Shown here: one piece after another, positions 8,689 through 25,520 of the stretch
Layout of the letters: every line of letters begins with the position of its first letter
Numbering within the stretch: position 1 is the first letter of the stretch
NCBI RefSeq assembly: GCF_018336915.1
Contig: NZ_CP064924.1
Span: forward strand, 1 to 32,000
Direction of reading: 5' to 3'
Origin: Acaryochloris marina S15
Lineage (GTDB): Bacteria; Cyanobacteriota; Cyanobacteriia; Thermosynechococcales; Thermosynechococcaceae
Length of the DNA: 32,000 nucleotides
The notes under the pieces: generated by a model
Seen by the model: only the letters and a program-made list of their open reading frames with translations
The model's database searches: none
What the model was told of the DNA's origin: nothing
Translations under genes and position numbers: made by a program

Positions 8689-10438
8689 GGGTATCAATTT
8701 AAGCCGGGAAAATAGCTTGGGTTAAAGGGTTAGGCCGTTTTTTCATTGAGGACTGACGTGCCACTGGCAATTCCCCCATAGAGTTAACAACCGACTCAAA
8801 CACATCAGGAAAAGGATGCCCAAAAAGCCGTTGTGCTGCGGTGGTCCCATCTGCTCTTTTGAGGTCAAAATTATGGATGATGGTGAGCACTTTCAAGGAT
8901 TCTTCCGAAAACCCTCGGGCTGCATGATGCAATCGGGATAGATAACCATTACGTCCTTCAACTGCGGAGGAAGTCCGTTGATACTTCGTACTCATCCATT
9001 GCGCCCAGTCTACCCACTCCTGGCTTTCTTGAGAGTTCATTTGTTGAGTCATGGGGTGCTTGAGTAACCGGGCATAAGCTTGTTCAGTCGCCTTTCGATA
9101 ATCTGCCTTGAGTAGAGGATGCCGAGTTTTGTCCGTTTGCTGTTGCCAATAAGCCCAGGGTAATAGGTACATGAGTACCCAGTTTTGTAGATCGAGATCA
9201 TCTGTGGCTACCTTTAGCGCTTGAGTCACCCATTGCCACCAAGCATGAATCCCCTGAGCCATTGAAGGAATTTGTTGTTGGAATGAGTCAATGGCTTTGC
9301 TCCCCTTCTGAGCACCATAGGTTTTGGCTAGGGTAGACATCTGGGCGAGGGGAGCATTCAACCCAGCCGATAGATCATCAAACAGCTGCCATTCCAAAGT
9401 CTTGATATTAAACGGATGAATGACTTGGGTAAGGCGATGAAGAACCTGATGATAGGCCATCTTGTCCTGCTCTAAAGACTGTTGCTGAGCAGAAATCTCC
9501 GCCTTTGATTGTTGGAGTTGTTGCTGTTTAGCCTCACTACGAACGTTGAGAAGTTGCTGTTGAAGTACAGTCGCTTTTTTGTTCAACTGACTCATTTGAC
9601 GACCCATATCACTGCCGATAGGTTGGGCTAAGGCACTCAGGGCATGGAATAAATCAGAAACACTGACACAGCCTAAGCCTGATACAGCTAATTTAATCAG
9701 GGCTGGAGCACCATCACTCACCATAAAATGACAATGCCATCCACAGCGGGTCCACCACTGCTGAATCTGGGCTTGCCAGGTTGCATAAGTACGGTTGGGA
9801 CGTTCCACCTCTGTGAAGATAAAGCCACTAGCCAATTCCAACATCACCAAGATAGGTAAACCAAAAAAGGTTTCGTCCCCACCGACACAGATGCCCTGAC
9901 CGTCTTTGGGTTGGCAATGCTCTTGCTGGGCGACTTCATAGGCGATAATCGCATCCCGCATCTTCCGTTTCAACAGCCGAAGGGAGCTGGCTGAAACGCC
10001 CACATGAGCATCTATGTGAATCGCTGTAAAAAATTCTGATAGACTCTCAGCTCCTACCCCATGTTTGACGCCGAAATAGTACACCACTCCTAAGACCATC
10101 ACTCTGAGCCATTGACTCCCTGTCTGACTTTCCCACCATAGTGACTCTGGATATTGGTTACGCCGAGCGATAGCCTGTTGATGACGATGAACACTGCTTT
10201 TTGATAGACCTGTCGCAGCAGCAATTTTCGCAATCCCTTTTACTCCCTGTTCGAACAGACAATCAGTGACGGCTTGGCAGCGCTCTCGTATTGTCAGGCT
10301 CATCGTTTCCTCTGTTGACTTGCAAAGGTACGATACAGCTCTTTGTGACTAACCGCAGATATCTTGCCTATTTCATCTACAAAAGAGTGCGATCCTATCT
10401 GAAAATACTCAAATCTTTTCCCGCTTTATGCTGGTAGC
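8689..10438 (-). mobile_element. 1.75-kb IS of unclassified family, inserted into the IS630 transposase gene
   Basis: The imperfect terminal inverted repeats are GGGTATCAATTTAAGCCGGGAAAA (8689-) and the reverse complement of ..CTTTTCCCGCTTTATGCTGGTAGC(C) (-10438/9), with about 17 of 24 positions matching. A direct repeat (C)CCAATTTA lies at 8680-8688 and 10439-10447. Removing the element and one repeat copy restores ..SERPNLFYGWAERN.. in frame. Confidence 0.85.
8699..10303 (-). CDS. putative DDE transposase (534 aa) with an N-terminal HTH and a Q-rich coiled-coil insert
   Basis: The ORF is intact and fills the IR-bounded element. The HTH is (GLSKSSVHRHQQAIARRN). Candidate acidic motifs are GGDETFF, MVSDGAPAL and SSAVEGRNGYLS. 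The family was not recognised with certainty. Confidence 0.6.
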   Translation of the reverse strand: MSLTIRERCQAVTDCLFEQGVKGIAKIAAATGLSKSSVHRHQQAIARRNQYPESLWWESQTGSQWLRVMVLGVVYYFGVKHGVGAESLSEFFTAIHIDAHVGVSASSLRLLKRKMRDAIIAYEVAQQEHCQPKDGQGICVGGDETFFGLPILVMLELASGFIFTEVERPNRTYATWQAQIQQWWTRCGWHCHFMVSDGAPALIKLAVSGLGCVSVSDLFHALSALAQPIGSDMGRQMSQLNKKATVLQQQLLNVRSEAKQQQLQQSKAEISAQQQSLEQDKMAYHQVLHRLTQVIHPFNIKTLEWQLFDDLSAGLNAPLAQMSTLAKTYGAQKGSKAIDSFQQQIPSMAQGIHAWWQWVTQALKVATDDLDLQNWVLMYLLPWAYWQQQTDKTRHPLLKADYRKATEQAYARLLKHPMTQQMNSQESQEWVDWAQWMSTKYQRTSSAVEGRNGYLSRLHHAARGFSEESLKVLTIIHNFDLKRADGTTAAQRLFGHPFPDVFESVVNSMGELPVARQSSMKKRPNPLTQAIFPA

Positions 10439-10447
10439 CCCAATTTA

Positions 10448-10987
10448 TTCTATGGCTGGGCAGAACGCAATACTCGTCCAGAGGTTCCGAGCAATACTCG
10501 TCCAGAGGTTCCGAGCAATGAGCGGGCTCGCAAGAAACTCAACGGTTTCCTTTGTGTTGATGCCCATAGTGGCGAGGAGTATTTTGGAATAAGCCCATAT
10601 TCCAAAACAGAAGATGTATCAGAGTACTTTGCAGACCTATGCTCCGAATGCGTTGAATCAGGCTACACTCAACTGTGCATTATTCTCGATAACAATCCGA
10701 CTCATAAGCTCAAAATGCAGTCCCAGCTGGCTGTTCATCTAGAGCAAATGGGACTGGCCCAATCGATTCAAGTTGAGTTTTTGTATCTGCCGTCCTACTC
10801 TCCCAAGCTAAACTTGGTCGAATATGTGATTCACTTACTGAGATTGCGATTGCTGCATCATCTCCCCATTGGAACGACACTTCCGCAAATCAGACAACAG
10901 TTCATTCAGTTCATTACTTCAAACCAGTTTCTATCGGCAGCACAAGTCCAAAAAACGCTTAATCATATCTTTTCACTCGCGCCCTAA
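10448..10987 (+). pseudogene. IS630-family transposase, 3' part
   Basis: FYGWAERN..GFLCVDAHSGE..CIILDNNPTHK..LYLPSYSPKLNLVEYV carries the second D and the E of the DDE triad. It continues the frame of 8116-8688 once the nested IS is removed. Confidence 0.8.
10469..10516 (+). repeat. perfect 2 x 24-bp tandem duplication inside the IS630 transposase gene
   Basis: AATACTCGTCCAGAGGTTCCGAGC occurs twice back to back. This gives an in-frame duplication of NTRPEVPS. Confidence 0.9.
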
Positions 10988-12352: not shown

Positions 12353-13828
12353 TTGGATCACTGGGAGGATCATTTGAAAAGCAATAGCCAGTCAGATAAC
12401 TTCGTCATGGATGCTGTATTAGGTAGCTTTAATCCTCTTAGGCTACATATGAGGCTCAACAACTTTCCTGAGGACAAAGAGGATCCTTCTACCGTACCAA
12501 TAGAAGCTCAAGCAACTATGGTGCATGAATATGCGCACTATCTCCAAATTTTGTTTACAGGCTTTGGACAGATTTCTTGGGATTTTAATAGACAATTAAC
12601 AGGATTTCTCTTTAATGAATGGAATCAGTTATCAAGATCTCAAGGAGTAAAGAGATATTTGCCCCTTGCATATTTATCAAATATTAGCCTCGATAATTTT
12701 ATGCAAGGCTTATTAGTAAATACAGCATCAAAGGATATGCTAAACCTTGCTCGGGCAAGATTCTATCTTTCTAATCCAGAGATAAAGATTTTTGAATTAG
12801 GCATAACAGATCTCAAAAAAGACTGGTTTGTGAACCCAAGAATAAATCTAAAAAATACTACTCATATTTTACAAACCAAAGATATTACCGAAGGTCAAGC
12901 ATATTTTATAGAGTCTGAATTTCTAGAAGTTATGCACAATATACCAAGAAATATAAGTCTAGATAAATCAGCTATTTCTAAACAATATTGGCTTGCTTAT
13001 GAATGGTTTATTGAAATCTGTGGTGAACAGCGGTATAAAGAATTTCCCATTATATGTGACTTAGCTATGCAAACTAGCTGGGAGCATATAAAACCAAAGT
13101 GTATCGATGAATGGCAGGATTCACATCCAGCATGGCGTTTTATAAAACTAACTCTGGCACTAAGTGAATCTGATGAACTTAAATTAAAGGACGATGAAGA
13201 ATGGCCAAATCATTATTCAAGTTATTCATCCTCCCTACTAAATACTTGTCAATACAAATCTCTTGAAGATATATTTATCGAGCGTCTAACATCTTTTGGA
13301 AGAAGACAAGAGCTATTAGAATTAGAGAAAATTATGCAAAGAGGGATGAGATTTAGAATAGACAATAATATGTATGCAGGAAATCCATTATCAGACTTAT
13401 ATTTATGGCAAAAAATATCAAATTCTTTTCCTATCCCATTTGCCCAGATAAATGGAAAAATGAATAGTTTTGGCCCTCAAAGTACTGAATTGAGCAATGA
13501 GATAGTTATAGAACTACAGTTCCAAGCATTTGCCTATCAAATATTAGGTGAATTCTCCAATGAAGCAAAGCAAGAGAAGTCTGTCGAATGTGCATTTTCT
13601 AAATTCAATATATCTCAAGGCTGCGAGTATCAGAGAAGCCATTCTTGTTCAGGTCGATATCAAGTACATGCTGGTCCTCCCCATGCAGTAGAGGTAGATC
13701 GTAATGGAGACTTTACTGGTTGCTCATTTGAAGCGTTATTTCTCAGTGCAGGTTTTCAAAGCACTGATATAGATGTTGACTTTGAAGCTACTCTGCCCAC
13801 CTTTGAGGAAATCAGGCTGGAGAACTAG
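12353..13828 (+). CDS. orphan 491-aa protein with an N-terminal HExxH motif (putative zinc metallopeptidase-like) and a Cys-rich C-terminus
   Basis: This is a long intact ORF in an AT-rich segment. The motif is ..TMVHEYAHYLQ.. at about aa 56-65. The track start is TTG, and the first in-frame ATG is at 12404. I recognised no family. Confidence 0.65.
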   Translation: MDHWEDHLKSNSQSDNFVMDAVLGSFNPLRLHMRLNNFPEDKEDPSTVPIEAQATMVHEYAHYLQILFTGFGQISWDFNRQLTGFLFNEWNQLSRSQGVKRYLPLAYLSNISLDNFMQGLLVNTASKDMLNLARARFYLSNPEIKIFELGITDLKKDWFVNPRINLKNTTHILQTKDITEGQAYFIESEFLEVMHNIPRNISLDKSAISKQYWLAYEWFIEICGEQRYKEFPIICDLAMQTSWEHIKPKCIDEWQDSHPAWRFIKLTLALSESDELKLKDDEEWPNHYSSYSSSLLNTCQYKSLEDIFIERLTSFGRRQELLELEKIMQRGMRFRIDNNMYAGNPLSDLYLWQKISNSFPIPFAQINGKMNSFGPQSTELSNEIVIELQFQAFAYQILGEFSNEAKQEKSVECAFSKFNISQGCEYQRSHSCSGRYQVHAGPPHAVEVDRNGDFTGCSFEALFLSAGFQSTDIDVDFEATLPTFEEIRLEN

Positions 13829-13829
13829 C

Positions 13830-14255
13830 TCGGGGTATGACAACGATTCCTCGGATAGAGGGCCATAGGGCCGGAATGCATTGACAGTAAATGTCCTGGC
13901 TTGCAGTCCTATCAAATCTTGAATATTGCGAGGATAAAAGAATATAAAAATGAGTTCTGAATCAAGGGAAGATCATCCTTTTTGGTGTTTAAGAAATTTG
14001 GGCCATATCACCCTTAAAGATGCCCTTGTAAAGGTTCAGATACCTGTAATCCCTTTGTAAAGGGCAGTTCAACAATACAATCATGTATTTTGATTGATAG
14101 GGTTGAACATCACCTTGGCTTCCAATTCGGAAATGTTAGAGCAATTCTGACTTCTCTTGATTCAAATAAAAATAATATCGAACTCTACAACCTTTATCTA
14201 GTAAGGGTTCATGTCCCTATGGTCCTCCATTCGAGGAATCGTTGCCATACCCCGA
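13830..14255. repeat. inverted-repeat-bounded 426-bp element (MITE-like) abutting the truncated integrase
   Basis: TCGGGGTATGACAACGATTCCTCGGATAGAGGGCCATAGGG (13830-13870) matches the reverse complement of 14215-14255 (CCCTATGGTCCTCCATTCGAGGAATCGTTGCCATACCCCGA) with 4 mismatches over 41 bp. No clear target duplication was seen. Confidence 0.55.
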
Positions 14256-15415
14256 ATAAGGACTGGCACCAGATTACCATGAACGATCTGAAGCGCTACA
14301 AGACTTATCTGGAGTCGGGTCGGGAGTTGAAGCAGGGTTCAGTGGGGGCTGTCCTGATTGCAATCAAGAGTTTCTTTGCCTGGTTAGTTAAGGCAGGGTA
14401 TATCGAGGATAACCCCAGTGCGGCCATTAGTATTCCCGTGACCCCAGAGACCGAGGGAAAGAACCTGGAACTGTTTCAGGTGGAGGCATTATTTGAAGCG
14501 TTGACAGGACGAACCACTGAGATCCGGGACCGAGCGATTCTCTGTTTGATGATCTATGCCGGGTTAAGGGCCGAGGAAATCTCTCTGTTGAATGCCGGGG
14601 ATTATAACGGGGTGGAGATCACGATTCGGCAGGCCAAGCATGGGTCCGTGGGTAAGGTGCCAGTTGATGATCTAACGGATGAAGCCCTAAGAGCGAATCT
14701 CAGAATTCGGATGGTGGACTGTGAGGGAGGTATGACAGCGGATGATCCGCTGTTCGTCTCTACGAGTCATCGAAATAAGGGTCAGCGGTTGGGGTATGAG
14801 GGTATCTATAAGCTGGTCAAGGCTTTGGCCCAGGACGCAGGCTGGCCTGATATTCATCCTCACAAGGGACGGCATACCTATGCCAGTCAGTTGATTGAGA
14901 ATGGCATGGATGCTTACCTGGCGATGACATTGATGCGGCAGCGATCTGTGAAGGCATTCGAGGTCTATTCCCAGAAGGTCAGGTATCGGACGGCTAAAGG
15001 AGTATTTCTGGAAAACAAAGGGGAGATGGAGCGACAGCCCATGTCGCTGGAGGAGCTTGTGATGGCTAGTGAGGTGCCAGTGGCTGAAGAGGCGATTGAG
15101 CTAGAAGTTGTCACTGAGGGGCCTGCGAACTGGCCCAAGATTACTGCGGTGGATCTGCCCTTGAATGCGGTCCAGGTGAGGCTGACCCTAGAGATGTCAG
15201 GGAGGAAGAAGGGTGTGGTCAGGAAGGCGATCGAGGAGCGGGTGCTGAGTCCGTTTCAGATGGTCAAACCTAAGAAGAGGGGGAATGAGTATGAGCTGAC
15301 GGTTGTGGTTGAAGAAGACGATGCGTTGTCTGCTATCACCGATCAGATGCGCTGGGATATGGAGGTGCTGGGGGAGTTAGATGATTGCGAGGTGAATGTG
15401 AAGTGGTTGGATTGA
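14090..15415 (+). CDS. tyrosine recombinase/integrase, 5'-truncated chimeric copy
   Basis: From 14258 (K57-D58, ..KDWHQITMNDLKRYK) to the 3' end, this ORF is collinear with and very similar to the 21504 integrase. Catalytic motifs are present (AGLRAEEIS, HPHKGRHTYAS, FEVYSQ). The first 56 codons start at TTG and are supplied by the IR-bounded element 13830-14255, so they replace part of the core-binding domain. The copy is likely non-functional. Confidence 0.8.
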   Translation: MIDRVEHHLGFQFGNVRAILTSLDSNKNNIELYNLYLVRVHVPMVLHSRNRCHTPNKDWHQITMNDLKRYKTYLESGRELKQGSVGAVLIAIKSFFAWLVKAGYIEDNPSAAISIPVTPETEGKNLELFQVEALFEALTGRTTEIRDRAILCLMIYAGLRAEEISLLNAGDYNGVEITIRQAKHGSVGKVPVDDLTDEALRANLRIRMVDCEGGMTADDPLFVSTSHRNKGQRLGYEGIYKLVKALAQDAGWPDIHPHKGRHTYASQLIENGMDAYLAMTLMRQRSVKAFEVYSQKVRYRTAKGVFLENKGEMERQPMSLEELVMASEVPVAEEAIELEVVTEGPANWPKITAVDLPLNAVQVRLTLEMSGRKKGVVRKAIEERVLSPFQMVKPKKRGNEYELTVVVEEDDALSAITDQMRWDMEVLGELDDCEVNVKWLD

Positions 15416-15433
15416 ATGTTGTTTCCAAAAAAT

Positions 15434-18400
15434 CTAATCCCACTGCCTTAGTCGTTGTTTTTGAACGTGTTTTTCTGCTGCTTCTATACTTTCGTACCAC
15501 TGTGGATATCGTTTGTGTAAGGCAGCCGCGACCTTGTTGCAGTCCCTGTTGATGTCAACCTTGATGTTCTGGGGAAGGGGCGAGTTGCAAATCAATGGAG
15601 GTTTCTTACCCACTAGTTGAGATTGGGTGAGATTGTTTGTCTTACGGAAGTTTGAATTCAACAGAATGGCGCTGCTGAGGTCGGCGCTGCTGAGATCGGC
15701 GCTGCTGAGATCGGCGCTGCTGAGGTCGGCGCTGCTGAAGTTGGCGCTGCTGAGGTAGGCGCTGAAGAGGTTGGCGCTGCTGAGGTTGGCGCTGCGGAGG
15801 TCGGCGCTGCTGAGGTCGGTTCTGCTGAGGTTGGCGCTGCTGAGGTCGGCGCTGCTGAGGTAGGCGCTGCGGAGATTGGCTCTGCGGAGGTAGGCACTGC
15901 TGAGGTAGGCGCTGCTGAGGTAGGCGCTGCTGAGGTCGGCGCTGCGGAGGTTGGCGCTGCTGAGGTCGGCGCTGCTGAGGTCGGCGTTGCGGAGGTAGGC
16001 GCTGCTGAGGTAGGCGCTGCTGAGGTCGGCGCTGCTGAGGTTGGCGCTGCTGAGGTTGGCGCTGCGGAGGTCGGCGCTGCTGAGGCTGGCGCTGCGGAGG
16101 TTGGCGCTGCTGAGGTCGGTGCTGCGGAGGTTGGCGCTGCTGAGGTCGGCGCTGCGGAGGTTAGCGCTGCTGAGGTCGGCGCTGCGGAGGTTGGCGCTGC
16201 GGAGGTCGGTGCTGCTGAGGTCAGCGTTTTCAAGGGGAGCTTGAAACAGTGGACGACAGTTCCCAAATAGCCGCTCTGCAAGATAAATTGGGACCCATGC
16301 CATCTCTTTTTGTTTTTTACATCCTCCCACTAACGCTTCAACTACCAGTTTCTCTTCATAAGTCCCTTCTATATCTAACCGGGCATAATCTCTTTTAACT
16401 GTAACTTCATGAATATTATGCTCAACAACAACAACTAGTAGAATTAAGGCAAAACCGATCACACCAGCTAAACTTAGCTTCTGACGGTGGAGAACTTTCT
16501 CGTATTGACTCCCTTGAAGTAAAGGCTTGAGATCGTCGGGAATTGCTACTGTCAGCAAATATTCCTTTGCCATAAAATCTAGAAAAATATAGTCACGCAG
16601 AGGCGCTTCATCACGAGTCTGACGAGACAGCAATCGCAGTAGTGGATGGGTTAAGTTGGGCAAGGTTCGCTGATACTGCTGAGCAATTTCTAATTGGAGG
16701 GGTCCAATGCCTCCTCTCACTGCTGTTACCATCAGTTGCTGAAAAGCTTGTCGCACCCCCTTATTTTGATCTGGTGTCAAATTCAAGACTAGATAATGTC
16801 TTAGCCAATCAGGAATATATCCATAGCGAAACCAAGGTAAACGCACAAGCTGAGAGAGGGTAGAACCCGACAATAAAGCCCGTCCCTCGGTATTCTGGAG
16901 CACATTACCTAGGTACACTGTTATCGTCCAATGCAGCTCAGGGAATACAGCGCAAGCGGCAAACCAATACAAACCTGACTCACCCAGATACGTGGAGAGT
17001 TCTGCCAACATCTGTTGCCCTTCCTCCGCTTTTGGCGGATACCGTTCTAACCAGCGTCGGGACCGGATCGCTAGCATCTCAGGAAATGGTGTTGAAGGCG
17101 CTTCAGCTAATCGATAGACGGTAGAACCCTTAAGGAAAATTTGTGGAAATGCTGCGATACCTTGGGGGGTTAGGGGCAGTAAAATAAACTGCTGTACCAA
17201 CTTAAATTCCCATTGACTCCAACTTTCTACAGGGTTGGGGGTTAGAATCACCCGTTGTTTCCAGGCTTGAATTAGCTCAAACCAGGGTTCAGGTTCACCT
17301 GTCTGATGGCTAAAAAGAGTCTCAGCTTCGGCCACAATTACTAACCGATCTTTGCTGTATTGATTGAATATGCCTTGTAAGGACTGGGGATATTGGGTGT
17401 GGCGTTCTGGGTAACAAATCTGAGCATCCCCATCAAAAAAATAGCGTTTAATGTAGACTCCGTTTTTTTGGAGTTGTTGAATGAGTTCTTCCGTTAGCTT
17501 GGCTTGGTGATCTGCATAACTGGCCCGATCGATTAAAAATAAATATTCAGGTATAACTTTTTTGGTGCCATAGATCGGGGTGAACCATCCCCCCTGCTTA
17601 ATAGAAGCTAGAAGTGTTTGCTGTATATCCAGAGTATTGGCAATTTGTTGGGTTCGTCGGCGTAGTTTCTGGGCCGTTTGAAAAATAAGGGTTGATGGAA
17701 ACAATGAACTTTCGATACCCTGCATTGAAATCTTCTGGAGTTCAGGGGATTGGTTGCTTTCTCGACGATTGAGAAACTGACGGGCAATTCGATACCACCA
17801 ATAGCGCCAAATCAATAGAACGGCTGAAACTATCCCTAGGAAGAGAAGCACTCTCATTTGAGACCATTGACTTTCACGCATCGAAGCAGGTGGTTCAGGG
17901 GCTTCTAATGAGAACGGATCTGGTTCGCTAGGGAGTGGGCTAGAGGCTGGAGTAGATGAAGGGCTAGGGGCTGGAGTAGATGAAGGGCTAGGGGCTGGAG
18001 TAGATGAAGGGCTAGGGGCTGGAGTAGATGAAGGGCTAGGAATCAGACCTTTGTGTAGTCGGCTGGGTAAAAATAACACGACCCCAGCAACGATGACCAC
18101 TCCCACTAGACGCCGTATGAGTGTCCTCCCCCCCTTTTGAATACGTGCCAAATCTTCCGCCAAGCCCTCAGCGATCTGCTCTGGGGTTTCAGGAGGGCGA
18201 TAATCCTCTAGCTTGAGCTGCTTCGCCCATTCTTCAAATCGCTCTTGAAAATCAATCTGTTCTGTAGCGGAACTGCAAACGATGGGGCCAATAAATGACT
18301 TTAGCTGCCTTAAATCAGACAGTTCTCCTTGAGCAACCAGATTTAAAAGTAGATCTTGAACGGCAATATATTGCTGAATTCCAATGTTGTAATCCGCATC

Positions 18401-18475
18401 ACGCAGATCATCCAAGAACTGCACCACCAGCTCAGATGCTAGTCTTGCTGGAGTGGTTGATTTTCCTGACTCCAT
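15434..18475 (-). CDS. 1013-aa multi-domain membrane protein: CoxE-like N-terminal region, PS-rich linker, MIDAS-less vWA-like core, about 39 pentapeptide repeats, and a short C-terminal domain
   Basis: The ORF is intact and overlaps the upstream AAA+ gene by 37 nt. There are three hydrophobic helices (LVGVVIVAGVVLFLP; VLLFLGIVSAVLLIW; GVIGFALILLVVVV). The N-terminus (FLDDLRDADYNIGIQQYIAVQDLL..EQIDFQERFEEW) and the core (YLFLIDRASYAD..IKRYFFDGD..RLVIVAEAETLF..KQRVILTPNPVESW) follow the pattern I know from CoxE-type vWA partners of MoxR ATPases. The DxSxS and SDG positions are not conserved. Confidence 0.8.
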   Translation of the reverse strand: MESGKSTTPARLASELVVQFLDDLRDADYNIGIQQYIAVQDLLLNLVAQGELSDLRQLKSFIGPIVCSSATEQIDFQERFEEWAKQLKLEDYRPPETPEQIAEGLAEDLARIQKGGRTLIRRLVGVVIVAGVVLFLPSRLHKGLIPSPSSTPAPSPSSTPAPSPSSTPAPSPSSTPASSPLPSEPDPFSLEAPEPPASMRESQWSQMRVLLFLGIVSAVLLIWRYWWYRIARQFLNRRESNQSPELQKISMQGIESSLFPSTLIFQTAQKLRRRTQQIANTLDIQQTLLASIKQGGWFTPIYGTKKVIPEYLFLIDRASYADHQAKLTEELIQQLQKNGVYIKRYFFDGDAQICYPERHTQYPQSLQGIFNQYSKDRLVIVAEAETLFSHQTGEPEPWFELIQAWKQRVILTPNPVESWSQWEFKLVQQFILLPLTPQGIAAFPQIFLKGSTVYRLAEAPSTPFPEMLAIRSRRWLERYPPKAEEGQQMLAELSTYLGESGLYWFAACAVFPELHWTITVYLGNVLQNTEGRALLSGSTLSQLVRLPWFRYGYIPDWLRHYLVLNLTPDQNKGVRQAFQQLMVTAVRGGIGPLQLEIAQQYQRTLPNLTHPLLRLLSRQTRDEAPLRDYIFLDFMAKEYLLTVAIPDDLKPLLQGSQYEKVLHRQKLSLAGVIGFALILLVVVVEHNIHEVTVKRDYARLDIEGTYEEKLVVEALVGGCKKQKEMAWVPIYLAERLFGNCRPLFQAPLENADLSSTDLRSANLRSADLSSANLRSADLSSANLRSTDLSSANLRSASLSSADLRSANLSSANLSSADLSSAYLSSAYLRNADLSSADLSSANLRSADLSSAYLSSAYLSSAYLRRANLRSAYLSSADLSSANLSRTDLSSADLRSANLSSANLFSAYLSSANFSSADLSSADLSSADLSSADLSSAILLNSNFRKTNNLTQSQLVGKKPPLICNSPLPQNIKVDINRDCNKVAAALHKRYPQWYESIEAAEKHVQKQRLRQWD
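15665..16226 (-). repeat. about 38 tandem 15-nt units encoding A(D/N/Y)L(S/R)S pentapeptides
   Basis: The plus strand reads GCTGCTGAGGTCGGC and its variants. The codons are almost fixed (GCC, CTC, AGC). Variation is essentially limited to (G/A/T)AC and (A/C)GC. Confidence 0.95.
17937..18040 (-). repeat. 4.3 tandem copies of a 24-bp unit encoding (PSPSSTPA)n
   Basis: GGGCTAG(A/G)GGCTGGAGTAGATGAA is repeated head to tail. It lies between the first two hydrophobic helices of the 1013-aa protein. Confidence 0.95.
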
Positions 18476-19449: not shown

Positions 19450-20561
19450 TAAAGTTGCCTCCCACTGATAACCGCTTCTTTTAAAAGCTTCGTTAAATGA
19501 GTTGCGACGTTATCCATCGGCATCGTTTCTTCTTGCTCAAACAACTGACCCACAGCACTCAACAGTTGCTCTAGGACGGCTTCACCCGTGAATTGACTGG
19601 TCTCTGGGCAACGTACCCAGTCCTCGACATGAGTACGATTTACATTATCGAGCTTGGGTAAAACAACCCCAGTCAAGTGATTAAAATCTCTAAATTCTGA
19701 TGCATTGAGATTTTCTAGCTGCTCAATAATCTCATGGTTCATTTTTTGACATCGGCGGCATTTTATAAATCGTCTAAATCGTCTCAACCAGGCAAAAGGG
19801 TTTATCAACCACCTACGTTTCCTCTCTATTCTCGACCGTTTAAGTTGATATTTGACGAAGACACAAACAACTAGCGTTTGATTGACCCCTAATTCTGGCC
19901 ATCGCTGCCAGAATTCTAATATTTTATGTATTAGGTCTGGCCCCAGCCGACGCCAATCGTCCGTCAGCAGATGTAGATGGACGATTACGGGGCCAGGATG
20001 TTTACCAAAGGTTTTGTTGATTTGCTCGACGGGGGCATAACTATTATTTTCAACAGTATCTGCTAAGTTTTTTGATAATCTAGCTGATAGCCTGTCCAAA
20101 TTCTTTAGACTAGCAGGCCATTGCAGATGATGTTCCTTAATCGCTGTTTGCTTGAGGTCAATGTTTAAGAGGCGAGGTAAGGAAACCTTGCGCAAGCGCT
20201 CCAGAAACTTATCATGACTCTGCAACTCATCCCCGTGTATCAGGCAAATTAATGGCTGTCGTTTTGATCGTGATTGCCATTTCTGAATCGCTAGACTCAG
20301 CGTATACTCCTGATCCGTTCGGTCAGGCAAATAGGGCAAGAGTGAAGGAATGACTGGCTTCGCACTCAAACCTTTTTGATCTAGGGCTATCCCGTTACTA
20401 TCAACAAAATATACGTTGCTCCCGGATATATTATTCGCATTCCCCCCAGACATCTGCCCAAAAGTCTGCCCCTGATTGTTGCCTATGTCTTGTTGAGCTT
20501 GATTTGTCGGCTTTGAGCTTTGCTCTGGAGAACTCTCTGGCGATGGATGCATTGAGGGCAA
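19449..20561 (-). CDS. 370-aa protein: N-terminal Q/N/G-rich motif plus an NTPase-like core with no Walker A
   Basis: The ORF is intact, with a TTG start in the track and an ATG at 20552. It contains ..QQDIGNNQGQTFGQMSGGNANNISGSNVY.., then LPYLPDRTDQEYTL..RQPLICLIHGDELQSHDKFLERL. No GxxxxGK[ST] motif occurs anywhere in the protein. Confidence 0.75.
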   Translation of the reverse strand: MPSMHPSPESSPEQSSKPTNQAQQDIGNNQGQTFGQMSGGNANNISGSNVYFVDSNGIALDQKGLSAKPVIPSLLPYLPDRTDQEYTLSLAIQKWQSRSKRQPLICLIHGDELQSHDKFLERLRKVSLPRLLNIDLKQTAIKEHHLQWPASLKNLDRLSARLSKNLADTVENNSYAPVEQINKTFGKHPGPVIVHLHLLTDDWRRLGPDLIHKILEFWQRWPELGVNQTLVVCVFVKYQLKRSRIERKRRWLINPFAWLRRFRRFIKCRRCQKMNHEIIEQLENLNASEFRDFNHLTGVVLPKLDNVNRTHVEDWVRCPETSQFTGEAVLEQLLSAVGQLFEQEETMPMDNVATHLTKLLKEAVISGRQL

Positions 20562-20588: not shown

Positions 20589-21077
20589 CTATAGATTTAT
20601 ATCACCTTGAACAGAGTCAATTACGCCGATATTTTTAACGTTTCCTCCTGACATCTGACCAATCACGACCCCCTGGTTCTCATCAATATTTTGCTGAGCA
20701 ACATTCTGGTTAGCTGAGGGCTGAATATCCGCAAAGATTTCTGCAATAGCAGCTTCTAATTGTGAATCATTTGCCAAAATCGTTGCTAATTCCTCTTGCA
20801 AGGCTTCCTTCCAAGCAGCACTTTCAGGAGTTGTCGCCAGCTTCTCAGCAGCGATCTGCGCTGCAGCTTCAGATTCTACCTTTGGGTGTAACTTACCCCA
20901 AATAGCCTTTGCTCTTTCCCAAGTATCTTCTCCTAACTTTTTAGCAGCTCCATCTAATGCTGGGGCACCAACTTTTTTCAGCAGGAAAGGCAAACAGGGA
21001 GCTAAAAATGATGTCAGAGCGATGATATCCATAAGAGATAAAAGCTGAGCAACAATCCGAAACATCACCTTTATCAC
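20589..21077 (-). CDS. small (148-162 aa) alpha-helical protein with a hydrophobic N-terminus and a C-terminal Q/N/G-rich motif
   Basis: The ORF is intact. The track start is GTG at 21077, and a more plausible ATG at 21032 gives MDIIALTSFLAPCLPFLLKKVGAPALDGAAKKLGEDTWERAKAIW... The C-terminus is ..QQNIDENQGVVIGQMSGGNVKNIGVIDSVQGDINL. Confidence 0.75.
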   Translation of the reverse strand: MIKVMFRIVAQLLSLMDIIALTSFLAPCLPFLLKKVGAPALDGAAKKLGEDTWERAKAIWGKLHPKVESEAAAQIAAEKLATTPESAAWKEALQEELATILANDSQLEAAIAEIFADIQPSANQNVAQQNIDENQGVVIGQMSGGNVKNIGVIDSVQGDINL

Positions 21078-21503: not shown

Positions 21504-22916
21504 ATGTCGCGTTTCTCTCAAACTTCCGACATCCCAACCGTCCGTCTGATTGAGTTCGGCACAGAAAAACCAGAGGAGAGCAAACCTGCATCTGAAACGC
21601 CCTTGCCTAAGCCAGCGGTAGTGAATCTGCGTCAAGTCAGAATCGAACAGTTCCTCACCCTGAAGAACCTGGCGGCCAACACCCGACGCAACTATGAACG
21701 TCATCTACGACAGTTCAGTTTATGGGTGAACAAGGACTGGCATCAGATTACCATGAACGATCTGAAACGCTACAAGACTTATCTAGAGTCAGGTCGGCAG
21801 TTAAAGCAGGGGTCGGTCGGGGCGATATTGACGGCTCTTAAAAGCTTCTTTTCCTGGCTGAAGAAGGCTGGGTACATTGAGGAGAATCCAGGGACGGCGA
21901 TCAGTATTCCGGTAACTCCAGAGACGGAGGGGAAGAATCTAGAGCTGTTCCAGGTGGAGGCACTGTTTGAGGCACTGGAGAAGCGGAAGACAAAGAGACG
22001 TGATCGGGCGATCCTGTGTTTGATGGTGTTTGCCGGGATGCGGGCTGAGGAAATCTCTCATCTCAATGCCGGGGATTATAACGGGGTGGAAATCACTATC
22101 CGTCAGGCCAAGCATGGATCCGTGGGTCGGGTACCTGTGGATGAGCAAACCGATGCAGCACTGCGGGCTAATCTTCGGGTTCGGATGGTGGATGGTGAGG
22201 GAGGGATGACAGCAGATGATCCGATGTTTGTCTCTACGAGTCATCGAAATAAGGGTCAACGGTTGGGGTATGAGGGTATCTATAAGATGGTCAAAGCCTT
22301 GGCCCAAGATGCAGGCTGGCCTGATATTCATCCCCATAAAGGACGACATACCTATGCCAGTCAGTTGATTGAGAATGGCATGGATGCGTACCTGGCGATG
22401 ACGTTGATGCGGCAGCGATCTGTGAAAGCATTTGAGGTCTATTCCCAGAAGGTCCGGTATCGGACGGCTAAGGGAGTCTTTCTGGAAAGCAAAGGGGAAG
22501 TGGAACGACAGCCAATGCCGCTGGAGGATCTGGTGGCATTTAGCGAGGTGCCAGTGGCAGAAGAGGCGATTGAGCTAAAAGTTGTCACTGAGGAGCCTGC
22601 GAACTGGCCCAAGATTACTGCGGTGGATCTGCCCTTGAATGCGGTCCAGGTGGGGCTGACGGTTGAGGTTTCAGGGAAGAAGAAGGGTGTGGTCAGGAAG
22701 GAGATCGAAGAGCGGGTTTTGAGTCCGTTTCAGATGGTCAAACCTAAGAAGAGGGGGAATGAGTATGAGCTGACGGTTGTGGTTGAGGAAGACGATGCGT
22801 TGTCTGCTATCACCGATCAGATGCGCTGGGATATGGAGCTACTGGCTGAGCTGGATGATTGCGAGGTGAAAGTGGTGTGGGTTGGGGATGGTTTGACCCG
22901 AAAGTGTTTGATATAG
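21504..22916 (+). CDS. tyrosine recombinase/integrase (470 aa), full-length copy with a long C-terminal extension
   Basis: It has an ATG start and an N-terminal SAM-like core-binding region (IEQFLTLKNLAANTRRNYERHLRQF). Catalytic motifs are AGMRAEEIS, KHGSVGRVPV, HPHKGRHTYAS and FEVYSQ. About 155 aa follow the catalytic Tyr codon at 22440. Confidence 0.88.
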   Translation: MSRFSQTSDIPTVRLIEFGTEKPEESKPASETPLPKPAVVNLRQVRIEQFLTLKNLAANTRRNYERHLRQFSLWVNKDWHQITMNDLKRYKTYLESGRQLKQGSVGAILTALKSFFSWLKKAGYIEENPGTAISIPVTPETEGKNLELFQVEALFEALEKRKTKRRDRAILCLMVFAGMRAEEISHLNAGDYNGVEITIRQAKHGSVGRVPVDEQTDAALRANLRVRMVDGEGGMTADDPMFVSTSHRNKGQRLGYEGIYKMVKALAQDAGWPDIHPHKGRHTYASQLIENGMDAYLAMTLMRQRSVKAFEVYSQKVRYRTAKGVFLESKGEVERQPMPLEDLVAFSEVPVAEEAIELKVVTEEPANWPKITAVDLPLNAVQVGLTVEVSGKKKGVVRKEIEERVLSPFQMVKPKKRGNEYELTVVVEEDDALSAITDQMRWDMELLAELDDCEVKVVWVGDGLTRKCLI

Positions 22917-23079: not shown

Positions 23080-24225
23080 TTGAAGGAGACCGCTTTGAAA
23101 AAACAACGCCACTGTGATCCAAAAGTTGAGCAACTTCTTGATGAACTGATGCAGGACTACAGCAGTCCTGAGCAGATATTGGGGGAGGAGGGATTAATCA
23201 AGCAATTATCAAAACGCCTGATTGAGAAAGCCTTACAAGCAGAACTGAGCCATCATCTGCAAAGCACACCCACAGGAGAGTCTCCATCGCCTTCAAAATC
23301 GGGCAATAGTCGTAATGGGTATTCCGCTAAAACGATCAATACCGAACAAGGGGCTTTCGACCTTCAGATCCCTCGAGATCGCCTCAGCGAGTTTGAGCCG
23401 ATTATTGTGCCTAAAGGCCAGCGTCGATTGGCCGGTCTTGATGAGAAGATTTTGGCACTGTATGCACGAGGGAGCAGTACCCGAGATATTCAAGGCCAGC
23501 TGGAAGAGTTGTATGGAATTGAGCTATCCCCAACCCTGATTTCTCAAGTCACCGATGCGATTATGGAAGAAGTCCGTCAGTGGCAAACTCGCCCCGTGGA
23601 TGCGCTGTATCCCATCCTGTTTTTGGATGCATTGTACGTCAAAATCCGCCAAGAAGGACGGGTTAAAAGTCGGGCAGTGTATGTGGTATTAGGGATTAAC
23701 CTCGATGGCCACAAAGAAGTCTTAGGCTTATGGATCGGACCTCAAGAACGGGAGGGGGCTAAATTCTGGCTCAAGGTCTTGACGGATCTCAAAAATCGGG
23801 GGCTACAAGATGTTTTTATCGCTTGTGTAGACGGATTAACAGGTTTTCCAGAAGCCATTGAAACCCTCTATCCCCAGACTCATGTGCAACTCTGTATCGT
23901 CCACTTGATCCGCAATTCTCTCAAATATGTCAGTTGGAAACACCGCAAGGAAGTTGCAGCTGATCTCAAGCCGATTTATCAAGCGGCAACGGTCTGTGAG
24001 GCGGAAGATGCTCTGACTCACTTTGCCGATAAGTATGATCAGGTTTATCCCACCATCAGTCAAATTTGGCTGCGCCATTGGGAAAGGGTGATTCCTTTGT
24101 TTGATTATCCGCCTGACATTCGCAAGGCCATTTACACCACCAATGCCATTGAATCAGTCAATCGTAGTCTCAGAAAGGTTTTGAAAACTAAAGGAGCATT
24201 CCCAGATGAAACCCTGATTGCCTGA
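23080..24225 (+). pseudogene. IS256-family (Mutator-type) transposase, 3'-truncated
   Basis: Typical IS256 sequence is present (..GNSRNGYSAKT..FEPIIVPKGQRR..ILFLDALYVKIR..FIACVDGLTGFPEAI..LCIVHLIRNSL..IYTTNAIESVNRSLRKV). It ends at ..GAFPDETLIA with a stop supplied by the end of the neighbouring IS. The usual C-terminal tail of about 40 aa is absent downstream. Confidence 0.85.
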
Positions 24226-25520
24226 CAGAAGTAGGTCAAAGCCTTTATTTACATAGTTTATGAGAAAAGAGTGGAGAGACATGTGAGGCTAGATTTAATC
24301 ACAAATCAGCGTTATTCAAATGTCAGGCCCCACCCAAATTTATCGTCAACTGTTTTCCTTTTTACGTCAACACAGCCATTATCGAGATTTGCGCCATCTC
24401 ATTGCTCTGGGCTGGATGGTAAGCGCGTTAATCTGTAGTGAACGCTTAAGCTTATCTGCCTGGGAATCCTATGTTCCCTGCCGAGCCAGAAAAGCCCAAA
24501 GTGTCGAGCGTCGGTGGCAACGATTTATAGCCAATCAACGCATTGATATTAACAAGCTATATGTACCTCTAGTCCTGCTAGCCCTTAAGAACTGGCACTC
24601 TCATCGTCTATACCTGGCAATGGATACAACGGTGTTATGGAATGAATATTGCATGATTCATCTATCCGTCGTCTGCTGTGGCAGAGCAGTACCGTTGTTG
24701 TGGAAAGTATTAGAGCACAAGAGTGCGGCTGTCGCTTTTGAGGAATATCAACCGTTATTGCGTCAAGCCCGTTGGTTATTACGGCAGCATCCAGATGTCA
24801 TGTTATTAGCAGATCGTGGGTTTGCAAACCATCAACTGATGAGCTGGTTACAACAGAGCCATTGGCATTACTGTCTGCGTATCCCTTGTGATGTCCTTCT
24901 TCATGGTCCACGTCAATGTCCAAGAGAAGTCCGACAATTGTGGCCATCCAAAGGAGCAGCAGTCCTCTACCGCAATGTAGGGCTTTGGGAAGATGGCATC
25001 TATCGGTGCAATCTGGTGTTGGCTAATATCCGAGGAGTGAAAGAACCATGGGCGGTGATTACAGATGAATCACCCACTTTACAGACCTTGTGGCAATACG
25101 CTTTGAGGTTTCGGGTCGAAGAATTATTTCTCGATAGTAAGTCTGGAGTGTTTGAGCTAGAAGAGTCGAAAATTCGTTGTGCTGATGCATTGGAGAGACT
25201 TTATCTGGTTGCTGCTGTGGCACTGCTATTCAGCACGACTCATGGGATGGCTGTTCACATTAAAGGGCTGCGCCAACAGGTTGACCCACATTGGCGACGA
25301 GGCATTAGTTATCTCAAAATTGGATTGCGATGGCTCAAGGGAGTCGTCCATAAAGGACGGGAGTTGTTGATGCCAGTCCCCTTGCTCTGCCATGATCCAC
25401 AACCGTGTTTTGCGTCTAAAAAAGCTCAAAAGAAACACTACAACAAAATCTGGTTCTCTCGCATCCGCTCTTTACAGTGCAAGGCTTTATGAGCAGGGGA
25501 AGGCGAAGATCTGTCAGGCA
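24219..25520 (+). mobile_element. IS4/IS701-like insertion sequence (about 1.3 kb)
   Basis: The 11-bp inverted ends are TGCCTGACAGA (24219-24229) and TCTGTCAGGCA (25510-25520), enclosing a DDE transposase ORF. The IR is short and no target duplication was seen. Confidence 0.6.
24320..25492 (+). CDS. IS4/IS701-like DDE transposase (390 aa)
   Basis: The ORF is intact. Its motifs are LYLAMDTT, VMLLADRGFANHQL and RFRVEELFLDSKSG. Confidence 0.75.
   Translation: MSGPTQIYRQLFSFLRQHSHYRDLRHLIALGWMVSALICSERLSLSAWESYVPCRARKAQSVERRWQRFIANQRIDINKLYVPLVLLALKNWHSHRLYLAMDTTVLWNEYCMIHLSVVCCGRAVPLLWKVLEHKSAAVAFEEYQPLLRQARWLLRQHPDVMLLADRGFANHQLMSWLQQSHWHYCLRIPCDVLLHGPRQCPREVRQLWPSKGAAVLYRNVGLWEDGIYRCNLVLANIRGVKEPWAVITDESPTLQTLWQYALRFRVEELFLDSKSGVFELEESKIRCADALERLYLVAAVALLFSTTHGMAVHIKGLRQQVDPHWRRGISYLKIGLRWLKGVVHKGRELLMPVPLLCHDPQPCFASKKAQKKHYNKIWFSRIRSLQCKAL

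Follow-up and report, generated by a model that had tools for sequence, protein, structure and literature searches.

A probable membrane-spanning vWA subunit of a predicted iSTAND-type MoxR–vWA ternary conflict system in Acaryochloris marina S15

The DNA considered here (the window) comprises the first 32,000 nucleotides of contig NZ_CP064924.1 of the cyanobacterium Acaryochloris marina S15 (RefSeq assembly GCF_018336915.1). Our subject is an ATG-initiated open reading frame (ORF) of 1013 amino acids (aa) on its reverse strand, the last of four co-directional, tightly packed genes whose products are a 147-aa protein, an iSTAND protein (an inactive STAND), a MoxR AAA+ ATPase and the 1013-aa target protein itself (Table 1). 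Ternary systems of iSTAND, MoxR and vWA components have been described from genomes (Kaur, Burroughs, Iyer and Aravind, eLife 2020; PMC7159879), and the CoxE-type N-terminal domain, transmembrane (TM) segments and variable C-terminal modules of their vWA proteins were recorded in the same work. We are highly confident that the target is the vWA co-chaperone subunit of such a system, in a membrane-spanning form, and a role in counter-invader conflict is predicted for it. The initial annotation had seen in it an unusual rebuilding of a CoxE-type protein; the target is instead an ordinary member of the predicted class and not an oddity, being the standard vWA component of a large iSTAND subfamily in which at least three other members end in a comparable TM-plus-pentapeptide cassette.

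The family to which the target belongs is large, and has attracted little notice under its own name. Its members are filed as hypothetical proteins or are named for their C-terminal domain, and the core of the family has no Pfam, NCBIfam or PADLOC model: the first 720 residues of the target were recognized by none of these three collections, scans with the full protein and with the core matching only pentapeptide repeats. Homologues were sought with aa 1-720, then by a profile search, and finally by an exhaustive HMMER search with a core profile. The first search gave 13 proteins that share the N-terminal 700 residues and end differently (WD40, CHASE2, ANF_receptor/Peripla_BP_6, FGE-sulfatase or TonB_C); the closest of them, from Acaryochloris sp. 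IP29b, has the same four genes and a WD40 C-terminus in place of the pentapeptide array, and the most distant (Acidobacteriota, 28% identity) lies in the order kinase-iSTAND, AAA+, family protein. About 40 more came from the profile search, from cyanobacteria, Acidobacteriota, Bacteroidota, Burkholderiales and Candidatus Magnetomorum, and with the core profile 3,845 representatives (at 50% identity) passed E≤1e-3, 2,640 of them with E≤1e-30. In a sample of 80 loci from GTDB genomes, anchored on the ATPase gene, about 58 of 73 had a gene for this vWA-like and helical core downstream of MoxR, and the upstream gene was iSTAND in 49 of 66, variously with N-terminal fusions to EAD11, TIR, DUF4062, kinase, trypsin, CHAT or caspase domains. 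The order iSTAND-MoxR-vWA is thus conserved across phyla. FGE-sulfatase was the C-terminal module in 17 of 48 cases and WD40 in about 7 of 48; pentapeptide and WD40 C-termini can replace each other even where the MoxR proteins are 95% identical.

These features agree closely with the published account. The iSTAND-MoxR-vWA trio, the CoxE-type N-domain, the TM segments, the helical linker and the variable C-terminal module are all shared by the described systems and the target, and the relatives collected here resemble those systems further in having FGE-sulfatase as their commonest module, effector or EAD fusions at the N-terminus of iSTAND, and frequent occurrence in cyanobacteria. According to Kaur et al. 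(PMC7159879), TM segments are found in c. 28% of iSTAND systems, the C-terminal region varies greatly, its commonest domain being FGS (FGE-sulfatase), and peptidoglycan-binding modules typically follow a TM segment; pentapeptide repeats are listed there for the sister VMAP systems.

The N-terminal domain of the target is of the CoxE type. As a reference, CoxE was taken from the cox cluster of plasmid pHCG3 (NC_015689, Afipia/Oligotropha carboxidovorans), and its homologues were collected and aligned. Profile–profile alignment (hhalign) matches residues 14-86 of the target family with CoxE 18-86 (probability 96%, E=4.6e-9), and the AlphaFold2 (AF2) model has four helices here (residues 14-26, 33-49, 55-66 and 70-89) with predicted local distance difference test scores (pLDDT) of 84-96. 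The domain is conserved from about residue 10 in homologues of several phyla, and the next in-frame methionine is residue 199. A start further downstream, which would have removed this domain, was rejected since the domain is conserved across homologues, and this conservation leaves no doubt about the start.

The core that follows was modelled by AF2 (aa 236-668, from 48 sequences) with a pLDDT of 86.4 and a predicted TM-score of 0.82. Its alpha/beta elements come in the order beta-alpha-beta-beta-alpha-beta-alpha-beta-alpha-beta-alpha, which fits a vWA domain, and are followed by an all-helical domain. Recognizable segments of the vWA domain are the pre-beta1 'LD-x3-T...GG', beta1 YLFLIDRAS, beta4 RLVIVAEAE and beta5 RVILTP. 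When the model was compared with 350,542 PDB chains by Foldseek, the top three matches were to the NorD VWA domain bound to the MoxR-class protein NorQ (E=0.9-1.4e-3, probability 1.00), and the full-length AF2 model likewise placed the NorD VWA on top. The segment from 'LD-x3-T…GG' through beta1 and alpha1 was aligned with CoxE by hhalign (E=1e-4). Scanned singly, 21 of 53 vWA-like regions of the family gave sub-threshold matches to the Pfam family VWA_CoxE (PF05762; best E=2.8e-4), no other Pfam family recurring more than three times, and column statistics over the family members give a beta4 consensus, [G/S]-D-G, that is typical of vWA domains.

Could the core nevertheless be another Rossmann-like fold (phosphoribosyltransferase-like, or a degenerate P-loop or STAND-like one) with added helical domains, the resemblance to CoxE being confined to the N-domain? 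HMMER profiles built for the core and for the vWA region retrieved no vWA protein from the PDB sequences, and for the target itself no vWA match reached threshold in Pfam, NCBIfam, PADLOC or the HMMER comparison with PDB sequences; the Foldseek TM-scores to NorD are low (0.30-0.36), phosphoribosyltransferases and NOD2 come close behind in the same list, and the DxSxS motif is absent. Set against this are the three MoxR-bound vWA domains at the head of the Foldseek list, the recurrence of VWA_CoxE at a level that no rival family approaches, the hhalign pairing of the LD-x3-T…GG segment, the beta1 aspartate and alpha1 with CoxE, the vWA-like beta4 consensus and order of elements, and the constant linkage to a MoxR gene, so that a different fold seems highly improbable. 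Because five lines converge, none of them decisive singly, and are joined by the obligatory MoxR neighbour, we consider it sound to regard the modelled core as a divergent CoxE-like vWA domain. The CoxE-like N-terminus and vWA-like core proposed in the initial annotation have therefore both been borne out, and the motifs quoted in their favour are all present in the ORF, YLFLIDRASYAD, RLVIVAEAETLF and KQRVILTPNPVESW lying on predicted strands beta1, beta4 and beta5. Matches of the HMMER profiles to TssG, a lipase-related protein and VisC among PDB sequences (E ≥0.006) were dismissed as chance similarities to unrelated proteins, and a STAND-like arrangement of nucleotide-binding plus helical domains, as in NOD2, was rejected at Foldseek TM-scores of 0.11-0.19 and probabilities of ≤0.5.

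The all-alpha domain (aa 466-653) that follows the vWA domain contains the most invariant motifs of the family, YW.AACAVFPELHW.IT.YLG and RLPWFR.GY.PDWLR. A helical linker, vWA-L, has been described between the vWA domain and the C-terminal module (Kaur et al., eLife 2021; PMC8195603), and from its position and secondary structure the all-alpha domain probably corresponds to it.

In one respect the vWA domain has departed from the canonical form. At the metal-ion-dependent adhesion site (MIDAS), both serines are replaced, because hhalign places D316-R-A-S-Y of the target opposite D-A-S-G-S of CoxE; at the beta4 aspartate position the target has glutamate (A-E383-A), compared with [G/S]-D-G in the family and S-D-G in CoxE. 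The target therefore keeps the first MIDAS aspartate and has Glu as the second, and the canonical arrangement (DxSxS … T … D) is missing at the serine and beta4 aspartate positions, as judged from hhalign and column statistics. Among 53 relatives, the first aspartate is kept in 40 (the others having E, N or Q) and the beta4 aspartate in 37, and the canonical serine positions are variable (A/T/V and A/Y/F). An alternative set is conserved, comprising R317 (in 39), S319 (31), D322 (37), H323 (39) and Q324 (41), to give the family pattern D-R-x-S-x-x-D-H-Q plus [GS]-D-G. Loss of the MIDAS serines is thus a family trait, and the conservation of a replacement pattern favours a modified site over a dead one: the residues are indeed non-canonical, as the initial annotation had it, but its judgement that a functional MIDAS was unlikely is too strong for a family that conserves another polar set. 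This differs from the published survey, according to which the two aspartates are kept, and peptides bound canonically, by most vWA domains of ternary systems (PMC7159879).

How is the protein disposed in the membrane? Exactly three segments exceed 1.9 on the Kyte–Doolittle scale averaged over 19 residues (aa 118-136, 204-222 and 667-685; values in Table 1), the next-highest peak in the target being 1.46. Of the relatives, 44 of 57 have a pair of TM-like segments ahead of the vWA domain and 32 of 48 complete ones have a single such segment after the helical domain, with almost none inside the core across the family; this 2+1 layout is the norm in the MoxR clade sampled here, as against the c. 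28% of all iSTAND systems reported to have TM segments (PMC7159879). Counts of lysine plus arginine (K+R) in 15-residue flanks are 3.5 before and 1.9 after TM1, 1.9 before and 4.5 after TM2, and 2.8 before and 1.5 after TM3, so that the positive-inside rule holds both around TM1-TM2 (Wilcoxon p=4e-8) and around TM3 (p=2e-5). The spacing of TM1 and TM2 ranges from 48 to 669 residues among relatives, which carry PKD (8/59) or CarboxypepD_reg (7/59) domains between the N-domain and the vWA domain, consistent with a place in the TM1-TM2 loop. In the target the loop consists of repeated PSSTPAPS, the product of a 24-nt tandem repeat at 17937-18040 (4.3 copies, 98% matches) that looks like a recent expansion. 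The modules that follow TM3 in homologues are of periplasmic type (CHASE2, ANF_receptor/Peripla_BP_6, TonB_C, FGE-sulfatase), and the cysteine pairs flanking the repeat array are conserved in the target, the pMB04 protein described below, P0176, P0182 and P0300; such pairs would suit disulfides in an oxidizing compartment. A topology with N-terminus in, loop out, core in and C-terminus out, as first proposed for the target on its hydrophobic helices, is thus well supported as a prediction and as the family norm, the N-domain, vWA domain and vWA-L-like domain being predicted to face the cytoplasm, and the loop and everything beyond TM3 to face the periplasm or thylakoid lumen.

Table 1. Positions of the target gene, the parts of its product, and neighbouring features of the window
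Feature	Position or sequence	Strand	Basis or remark
Whole gene: membrane-spanning vWA component of iSTAND ternary system (very probable), 1013 aa	15434..18475	(-)	ORF, homologues and conserved gene order
CoxE-type four-helix N-terminal domain, aa 14-89, predicted cytoplasmic	18209..18436	(-)	hhalign alignment with CoxE; AF2
TM1, aa 118-136	18068..18124	(-)	Kyte–Doolittle 2.29; AF2 long helix aa 98-135; TM-like segment family-wide
Pro/Ser-rich loop, aa 142-196, predicted extracytoplasmic	17888..18052	(-)	Tandem repeat; AF2 pLDDT <50; flanks poor in K+R
TM2, aa 204-222	17810..17866	(-)	Kyte–Doolittle 1.91; AF2 helix aa 197-237
Divergent CoxE-like vWA domain, aa 261-450	17126..17695	(-)	AF2, Foldseek, hhalign, sub-threshold VWA_CoxE
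Conserved all-alpha domain, aa 466-653	16517..17080	(-)	Conservation; AF2 helices; present in nearly all MoxR-linked relatives
TM3, aa 667-685	16421..16477	(-)	Kyte–Doolittle 2.65; AF2 helix aa 658-701; K+R 2.8 before, 1.5 after
Juxtamembrane cap, aa 690-748, two conserved Cys (…VGGCKK…FGNCRPL)	16232..16408	(-)	Conserved in pMB04 nSTAND1 protein and P0176
Pentapeptide-repeat array, 40 units, aa 750-949, predicted outside cytoplasm	15629..16228	(-)	Pfam PF00805; register; 15-nt array
C-terminal tail, aa 950-1013, Cys pair (ICN…NRDC), two helices; span includes stop codon	15434..15628	(-)	Alignment, AF2
MoxR-class AAA+ ATPase, 336 aa	18439..19449	(-)	Pfam AAA and AAA_5; Walker A GEPGTGKT, Walker B VVLIDEVDK
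iSTAND protein, 370 aa	19449..20561	(-)	Pfam PF19995, E=2.5e-22, 80.4 bits against cut-off 24
147-aa helical protein, candidate Bell-like effector	20589..21032	(-)	ORF reaches GTG at 21077, for 162 aa; shared motif
Putative effector-pairing motif peptide	QPSANQNVAQQNIDENQGVVIGQMSGGNVKNIGVIDSVQGDINL		Counterpart iSTAND 10-55
Tyrosine recombinase	14090..15415	(+)	Convergent with target 3' end; paralogue of 21504-22916
Second tyrosine recombinase	21504..22916	(+)	With 14090..15415 brackets operon

The C-terminal part of the target is dominated by pentapeptide repeats (Pfam Pentapeptide, PF00805; E=2.3e-42, 142.5 bits against a cut-off of 20.2). Forty in-register units with the consensus S-A-[D/N/Y]-L-[S/R] occupy aa 750-949, predicted to form about 10 coils of a pentapeptide beta-helix, and the underlying DNA is a 15-nt tandem repeat of 37 copies with 87% matches. 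Variation is focused on two positions of the unit (D/N/Y and S/R), the conserved alanine and leucine positions being nearly fixed. In the pentapeptide fold such variable positions point outward. Here they are mixed in charge, with about 17 aspartates and 14 arginines. The array also gives rise to a strong GC skew (+0.34) in 15001-16000, and a 207-aa ORF with 'TSAAP' repeats (15658-16281 (-)) is not a gene, being an alternative frame through the array.

Pentapeptide helices of the Qnr/MfpA type are DNA mimics, as the initial annotation pointed out, and the array might be another such mimic, which would target gyrase or other DNA-binding proteins and either serve as a decoy or inhibit enzymes of an invader; the presence of pentapeptide repeats fits this, and Kaur et al. 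raise the possibility for cytoplasmic versions (PMC7159879). The analogy fails, however, at several points: the array is predicted to lie outside the cytoplasm, is flanked by conserved cysteine pairs and has mixed charge at its variable positions, and the NCBIfam models for Qnr (77.3 bits against a cut-off of 240) and MfpA (47.7 against 360) fall far under their cut-offs. We regard DNA mimicry here as extremely improbable.

Another comparison is with a caspase-nSTAND1 protein of an Acaryochloris 'Moss Beach' plasmid, pMB04 (WP_235112372.1; L085:6487-9549 (-)). Residues 625-1011 of the target, comprising TM3, the cysteine-containing cap, the array and the cysteine-containing tail, are 50% identical over 387 aa to the C-terminus of this protein (E=1e-83), and at the pMB04 locus, too, a convergent tyrosine recombinase gene lies just past the 3' end. 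The cytoplasmic part of the pMB04 protein is quite different, being an active STAND NTPase with an N-terminal caspase in place of a vWA protein that has separate MoxR and iSTAND genes as partners. The same cap and tail occur in P0176. Since the cassette is common to the target, other family members and the caspase-nSTAND1 protein, the run of TM3, cap, array and tail appears to be a mobile module used on different conflict-system platforms. Sensing in STAND NTPases is the task of the C-terminal repeat region. Because the cassette ends the nSTAND1 protein at this canonical sensor position, because its variation is focused on the predicted surface, and because its repeats are similar at the DNA level, we infer that the pentapeptide module would act as an outside sensor rather than as an effector. 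Fast-evolving repeats with DNA-level similarity have been noted in NLR-like proteins by Dyrka et al. (bioRxiv 10.1101/2020.01.06.895854).

This assignment is opposed to the published one, in which the cytoplasmic iSTAND is the sensor of the invader and the C-terminal module an effector or scaffold, here the pentapeptide array, that would be released by MoxR into an envelope superstructure containing the infection or engaging the cell wall. In favour of that scheme, pentapeptide repeats, propellers and TPR repeats were classed among superstructure-forming domains of the effector position, and peptidoglycan-binding modules follow the TM segment in iSTAND systems (PMC7159879); iSTAND is a predicted nucleic-acid receptor (PMC8195603); and one homologue of the target carries TonB_C. 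It offers no obvious way, though, for a cytoplasmic ATPase to deploy a module that is permanently tethered outside the membrane. The alternative modules of the subfamily include classical ligand-binding sensors (CHASE2 and periplasmic binding proteins), the same cassette stands at the sensor position of an active nSTAND1-caspase protein, and the clear effectors (TIR, caspase, CHAT, kinase, trypsin) are on the iSTAND side. For these reasons we think the published assignment of roles rather unlikely for the target, while giving it more weight than any other alternative considered here.

What, then, might an outside sensor act upon? The gene immediately upstream of the target, which overlaps its start by 37 nt, encodes the ATPase. 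Its AAA and AAA_5 matches and intact Walker A and B motifs uphold the earlier view that the adjacent AAA+ partner is a MoxR ATPase, and membership of the MoxR clade is suggested by a Helix-2-insert-like motif, 'RDLFYTYD', and by analogy with CoxD and NorQ. The protein is 48% identical to its Acidobacteriota orthologue and has 547 relatives in GTDB genomes. In the iSTAND protein, the Walker A position reads IHGDELQSHDKF, without GK[ST].

Upstream of the iSTAND gene, separated from it by 27 nt, lies the gene for the 147-aa protein, the most likely start of which is the ATG at 21032. The protein begins with a hydrophobic helix, MDIIALTSFLAP, and its last c. 30 residues match residues 14-46 of iSTAND (20424-20522 (-)), in the stretch NVAQQNIDENQGVVIGQMSGGNVKNIG. 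The shared motif, rich in Q/N/G, is 59-63% identical over 27-32 residues (E=5e-8). The pairing, which recurs in four cyanobacterial loci, is present in L004, L005 and L007; genomes with the same small protein and pairing are those of Acaryochloris IP29b, a member of the Leptolyngbyaceae and a Nostoc. Elsewhere the partner of the iSTAND N-terminus is a gene for a CHAT/caspase protein; the 147-aa protein is therefore in an effector position. In a further case of pairing by a short motif, Q/N/G-rich repeats of the 'NNVQGDNNRAVQGDNNQAVLGD' type are shared by the iSTAND N-terminus and the upstream gene in the cyanobacterial loci L009, L010 and L014, where the upstream product is a CHAT protease, a pentapeptide-repeat protein or a 178-aa protein.

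In published iSTAND systems, upstream pairing involves a named EAD domain rather than a short motif of this kind. A parallel is provided by the Bell-domain/BASS amyloid signalling pairs, in which the partner is a neighbouring NACHT or NB-ARC protein (Dyrka et al., 2020; bioRxiv 10.1101/2020.01.06.895854); amyloid signalling by Bab/Agp has been demonstrated experimentally in E. coli (bioRxiv 10.1101/2024.11.07.622273). Like those pairs, the pair in the window consists of a helical protein of c. 147 aa, with a hydrophobic N-terminal helix that has Asp at position 2 and a C-terminal motif of c. 30 residues rich in Q/N/G/V/I, and a collinear STAND-like neighbour that repeats the motif at its N-terminus. 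The partner here is, however, an inactive STAND in a MoxR-vWA system and not an NLR of the NACHT/NB-ARC kind, and the likeness is one of descriptive features only. We therefore put forward the 147-aa protein as a candidate Bell-like effector, as a lead. The literature searched contained no link between iSTAND and amyloid motifs; the shared motif may bridge the EAD adaptor logic of Kaur et al. and the amyloid signalling of Dyrka, Saupe and colleagues, which have so far been developed separately.

For the step between sensor and adaptor, other MoxR-vWA pairs provide models. CoxE of pHCG3 shares with the target the four-helix N-domain, the 'LD-x3-T…GG' segment before beta1, the beta1 aspartate, the '…P…W' of beta5 and an adjoining MoxR (CoxD-like) gene. 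It differs in being soluble (399 aa) and in having a canonical D-A-S-G-S … S-D-G MIDAS, and it lacks TM helices, vWA-L and a C-terminal module. NorD (PDB 9qh6, 9qhe, 9qhf; PMC13036017), the best structural match of the core, has the same succession of N-domain, linker and vWA and has a MoxR-class hexamer as its partner; it remodels nitric oxide reductase so that iron can be inserted, and has a soluble linker. Cryo-electron microscopy of NorQD (Nat Commun 2026; PMC13036017) has shown the VWA domain inserting a finger from its N-terminal edge into the AAA+ pore, with the N-domain on the rim of the ring; on ATP hydrolysis the VWA domain is turned against the N-domain, stretching the linker. In the target, the pre-beta1 segment that aligns with CoxE stands where the NorD finger stands, and the TM1-loop-TM2 hairpin is the corresponding linker; unlike that of NorD, it lies in the membrane as a hairpin whose loop is outside, and the locus has no linked client enzyme. 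By analogy, the hairpin may be the part on which MoxR exerts force, or its state may decide whether the N-domain can engage MoxR.

These parallels also raise the question of whether the target and its ATPase are simply a housekeeping chaperone pair of the CoxD/CoxE or NorQ/NorD kind, assembling or inserting a cofactor into a membrane or periplasmic complex, with no part in immunity. Assembly chaperones are what all experimentally studied MoxR-vWA pairs have turned out to be, NorD is the best structural match, and the N-domain and vWA domain are of the CoxE type. Against this, the operon has no linked client enzyme genes, its C-terminal modules differ between close relatives (WD40 or pentapeptide at 95% MoxR identity), its iSTAND partners carry TIR, caspase and kinase domains, and the locus is bracketed by recombinase genes with transposases around it. 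The canonical MIDAS used for client binding has also been lost. A housekeeping role is thus very unlikely.

From these components a sensing-to-effector sequence can be sketched, which is tentative and to which we would give somewhat less than an even chance. The variable outside module would provide the input, by binding a cue at the level of the envelope, for example a phage component or wall damage, or by being disturbed by it. TM3 and the TM1-TM2 hairpin would relay the resulting change to the domains in the cytoplasm. The MoxR hexamer would grip the vWA domain via the pre-beta1 'finger' and the N-domain, as in NorQ/NorD, and ATP hydrolysis would then twist the segment between vWA and N-domain, which in the target is the membrane hairpin. 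This ATP-gated event would free or reorganize the iSTAND adaptor, the N-terminal Q/N/G-rich motif of which would template the matching C-terminal motif of the 147-aa protein, and the hydrophobic N-terminal helix of the latter might attack the membrane, leading to growth arrest or death of the infected cell. In its fullest form, that of a trans-envelope immune sentinel, the idea would combine for the first time a fast-evolving periplasmic pentapeptide sensor that is exchangeable as a cassette with STAND-caspase proteins, a MoxR ATPase that reads or resets this sensor by twisting a membrane hairpin where CoxE and NorD have a soluble linker, and prion-like templating from iSTAND to a Bell-like membrane-attacking effector; in this form it must be considered unlikely.

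Several points weigh against the account given here, which, with identity, layout and mechanism taken together, we consider moderately probable and the best explanation overall. The low TM-scores to NorD VWA mentioned above, 0.30-0.36, are accompanied by a root-mean-square deviation of c. 10 Å and E-values of about 1e-3; the hhalign match of the core to CoxE has a probability of 57% across 66 columns; and the vWA segment of the target misses the threshold for PF05762, at 11.3 bits (E=0.23) against a gathering cut-off of 26.4. The topology is a prediction only. The pentapeptide region has an AF2 pLDDT of c. 26, from an alignment that mixes unrelated C-terminal domains, and its predicted fold is taken from the Pfam match. 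The 147-aa protein has no sequence match in Pfam, NCBIfam or PDB (phmmer against PDB sequences was empty). The finger-in-pore and twisting steps are borrowed from a distant MoxR-vWA pair, the published reading gives opposite roles to iSTAND (sensor) and the C-terminal modules of the vWA proteins (effectors) (PMC7159879, PMC8195603), and no experimental study of iSTAND or other MoxR-vWA ternary systems was found in the literature searched.

The concrete points to emerge are the family-wide trans-membrane layout, the occurrence of its cassette in an nSTAND1-caspase protein as well, and a link, possibly of the amyloid type, to a small effector. The layout suggests that a predicted defence system, confined to a compact four-gene locus, senses extracytoplasmically, unlike in the published reading with its C-terminal effector (PMC7159879), and that the NorQD twisting mechanism acts here on a membrane hairpin. 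If the full scheme is true, a bacterial defence system would here take its cue from beyond the cytoplasm, and its output would be the first of the amyloid-signalling kind to be described for a MoxR-vWA system.

Finally, we draw attention to the surroundings of the operon. The two tyrosine recombinase genes that bracket it have the same orientation and share a 300-nt stretch that is 76% identical, the first of them lying 19 nt from the stop codon of the target; both products have a C-terminal extension of c. 130-150 aa past the Phage_integrase match. All DNA matches in PLSDB are to Acaryochloris plasmids, the best of them (80-88%) being restricted to the recombinase and the repeat array. Genes of mobile elements are dense elsewhere in the window, encoding a DUF6399 protein (8699-10303 (-)), an IS630 fragment (10715-10987 (+)), a Mutator-family transposase (23080-24225 (+)), a DDE_Tnp_1 transposase (24320-25492 (+)) and an ISAs1 transposase (27477-28718 (-)), and the window is probably DNA of an Acaryochloris plasmid or genomic island. 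Just outside the recombinase-bracketed operon is a 491-aa ORF (12353-13828 (+)) with no Pfam, NCBIfam or PADLOC match; its GC content of 33-37%, compared with c. 46% elsewhere, marks this stretch as probably foreign DNA.

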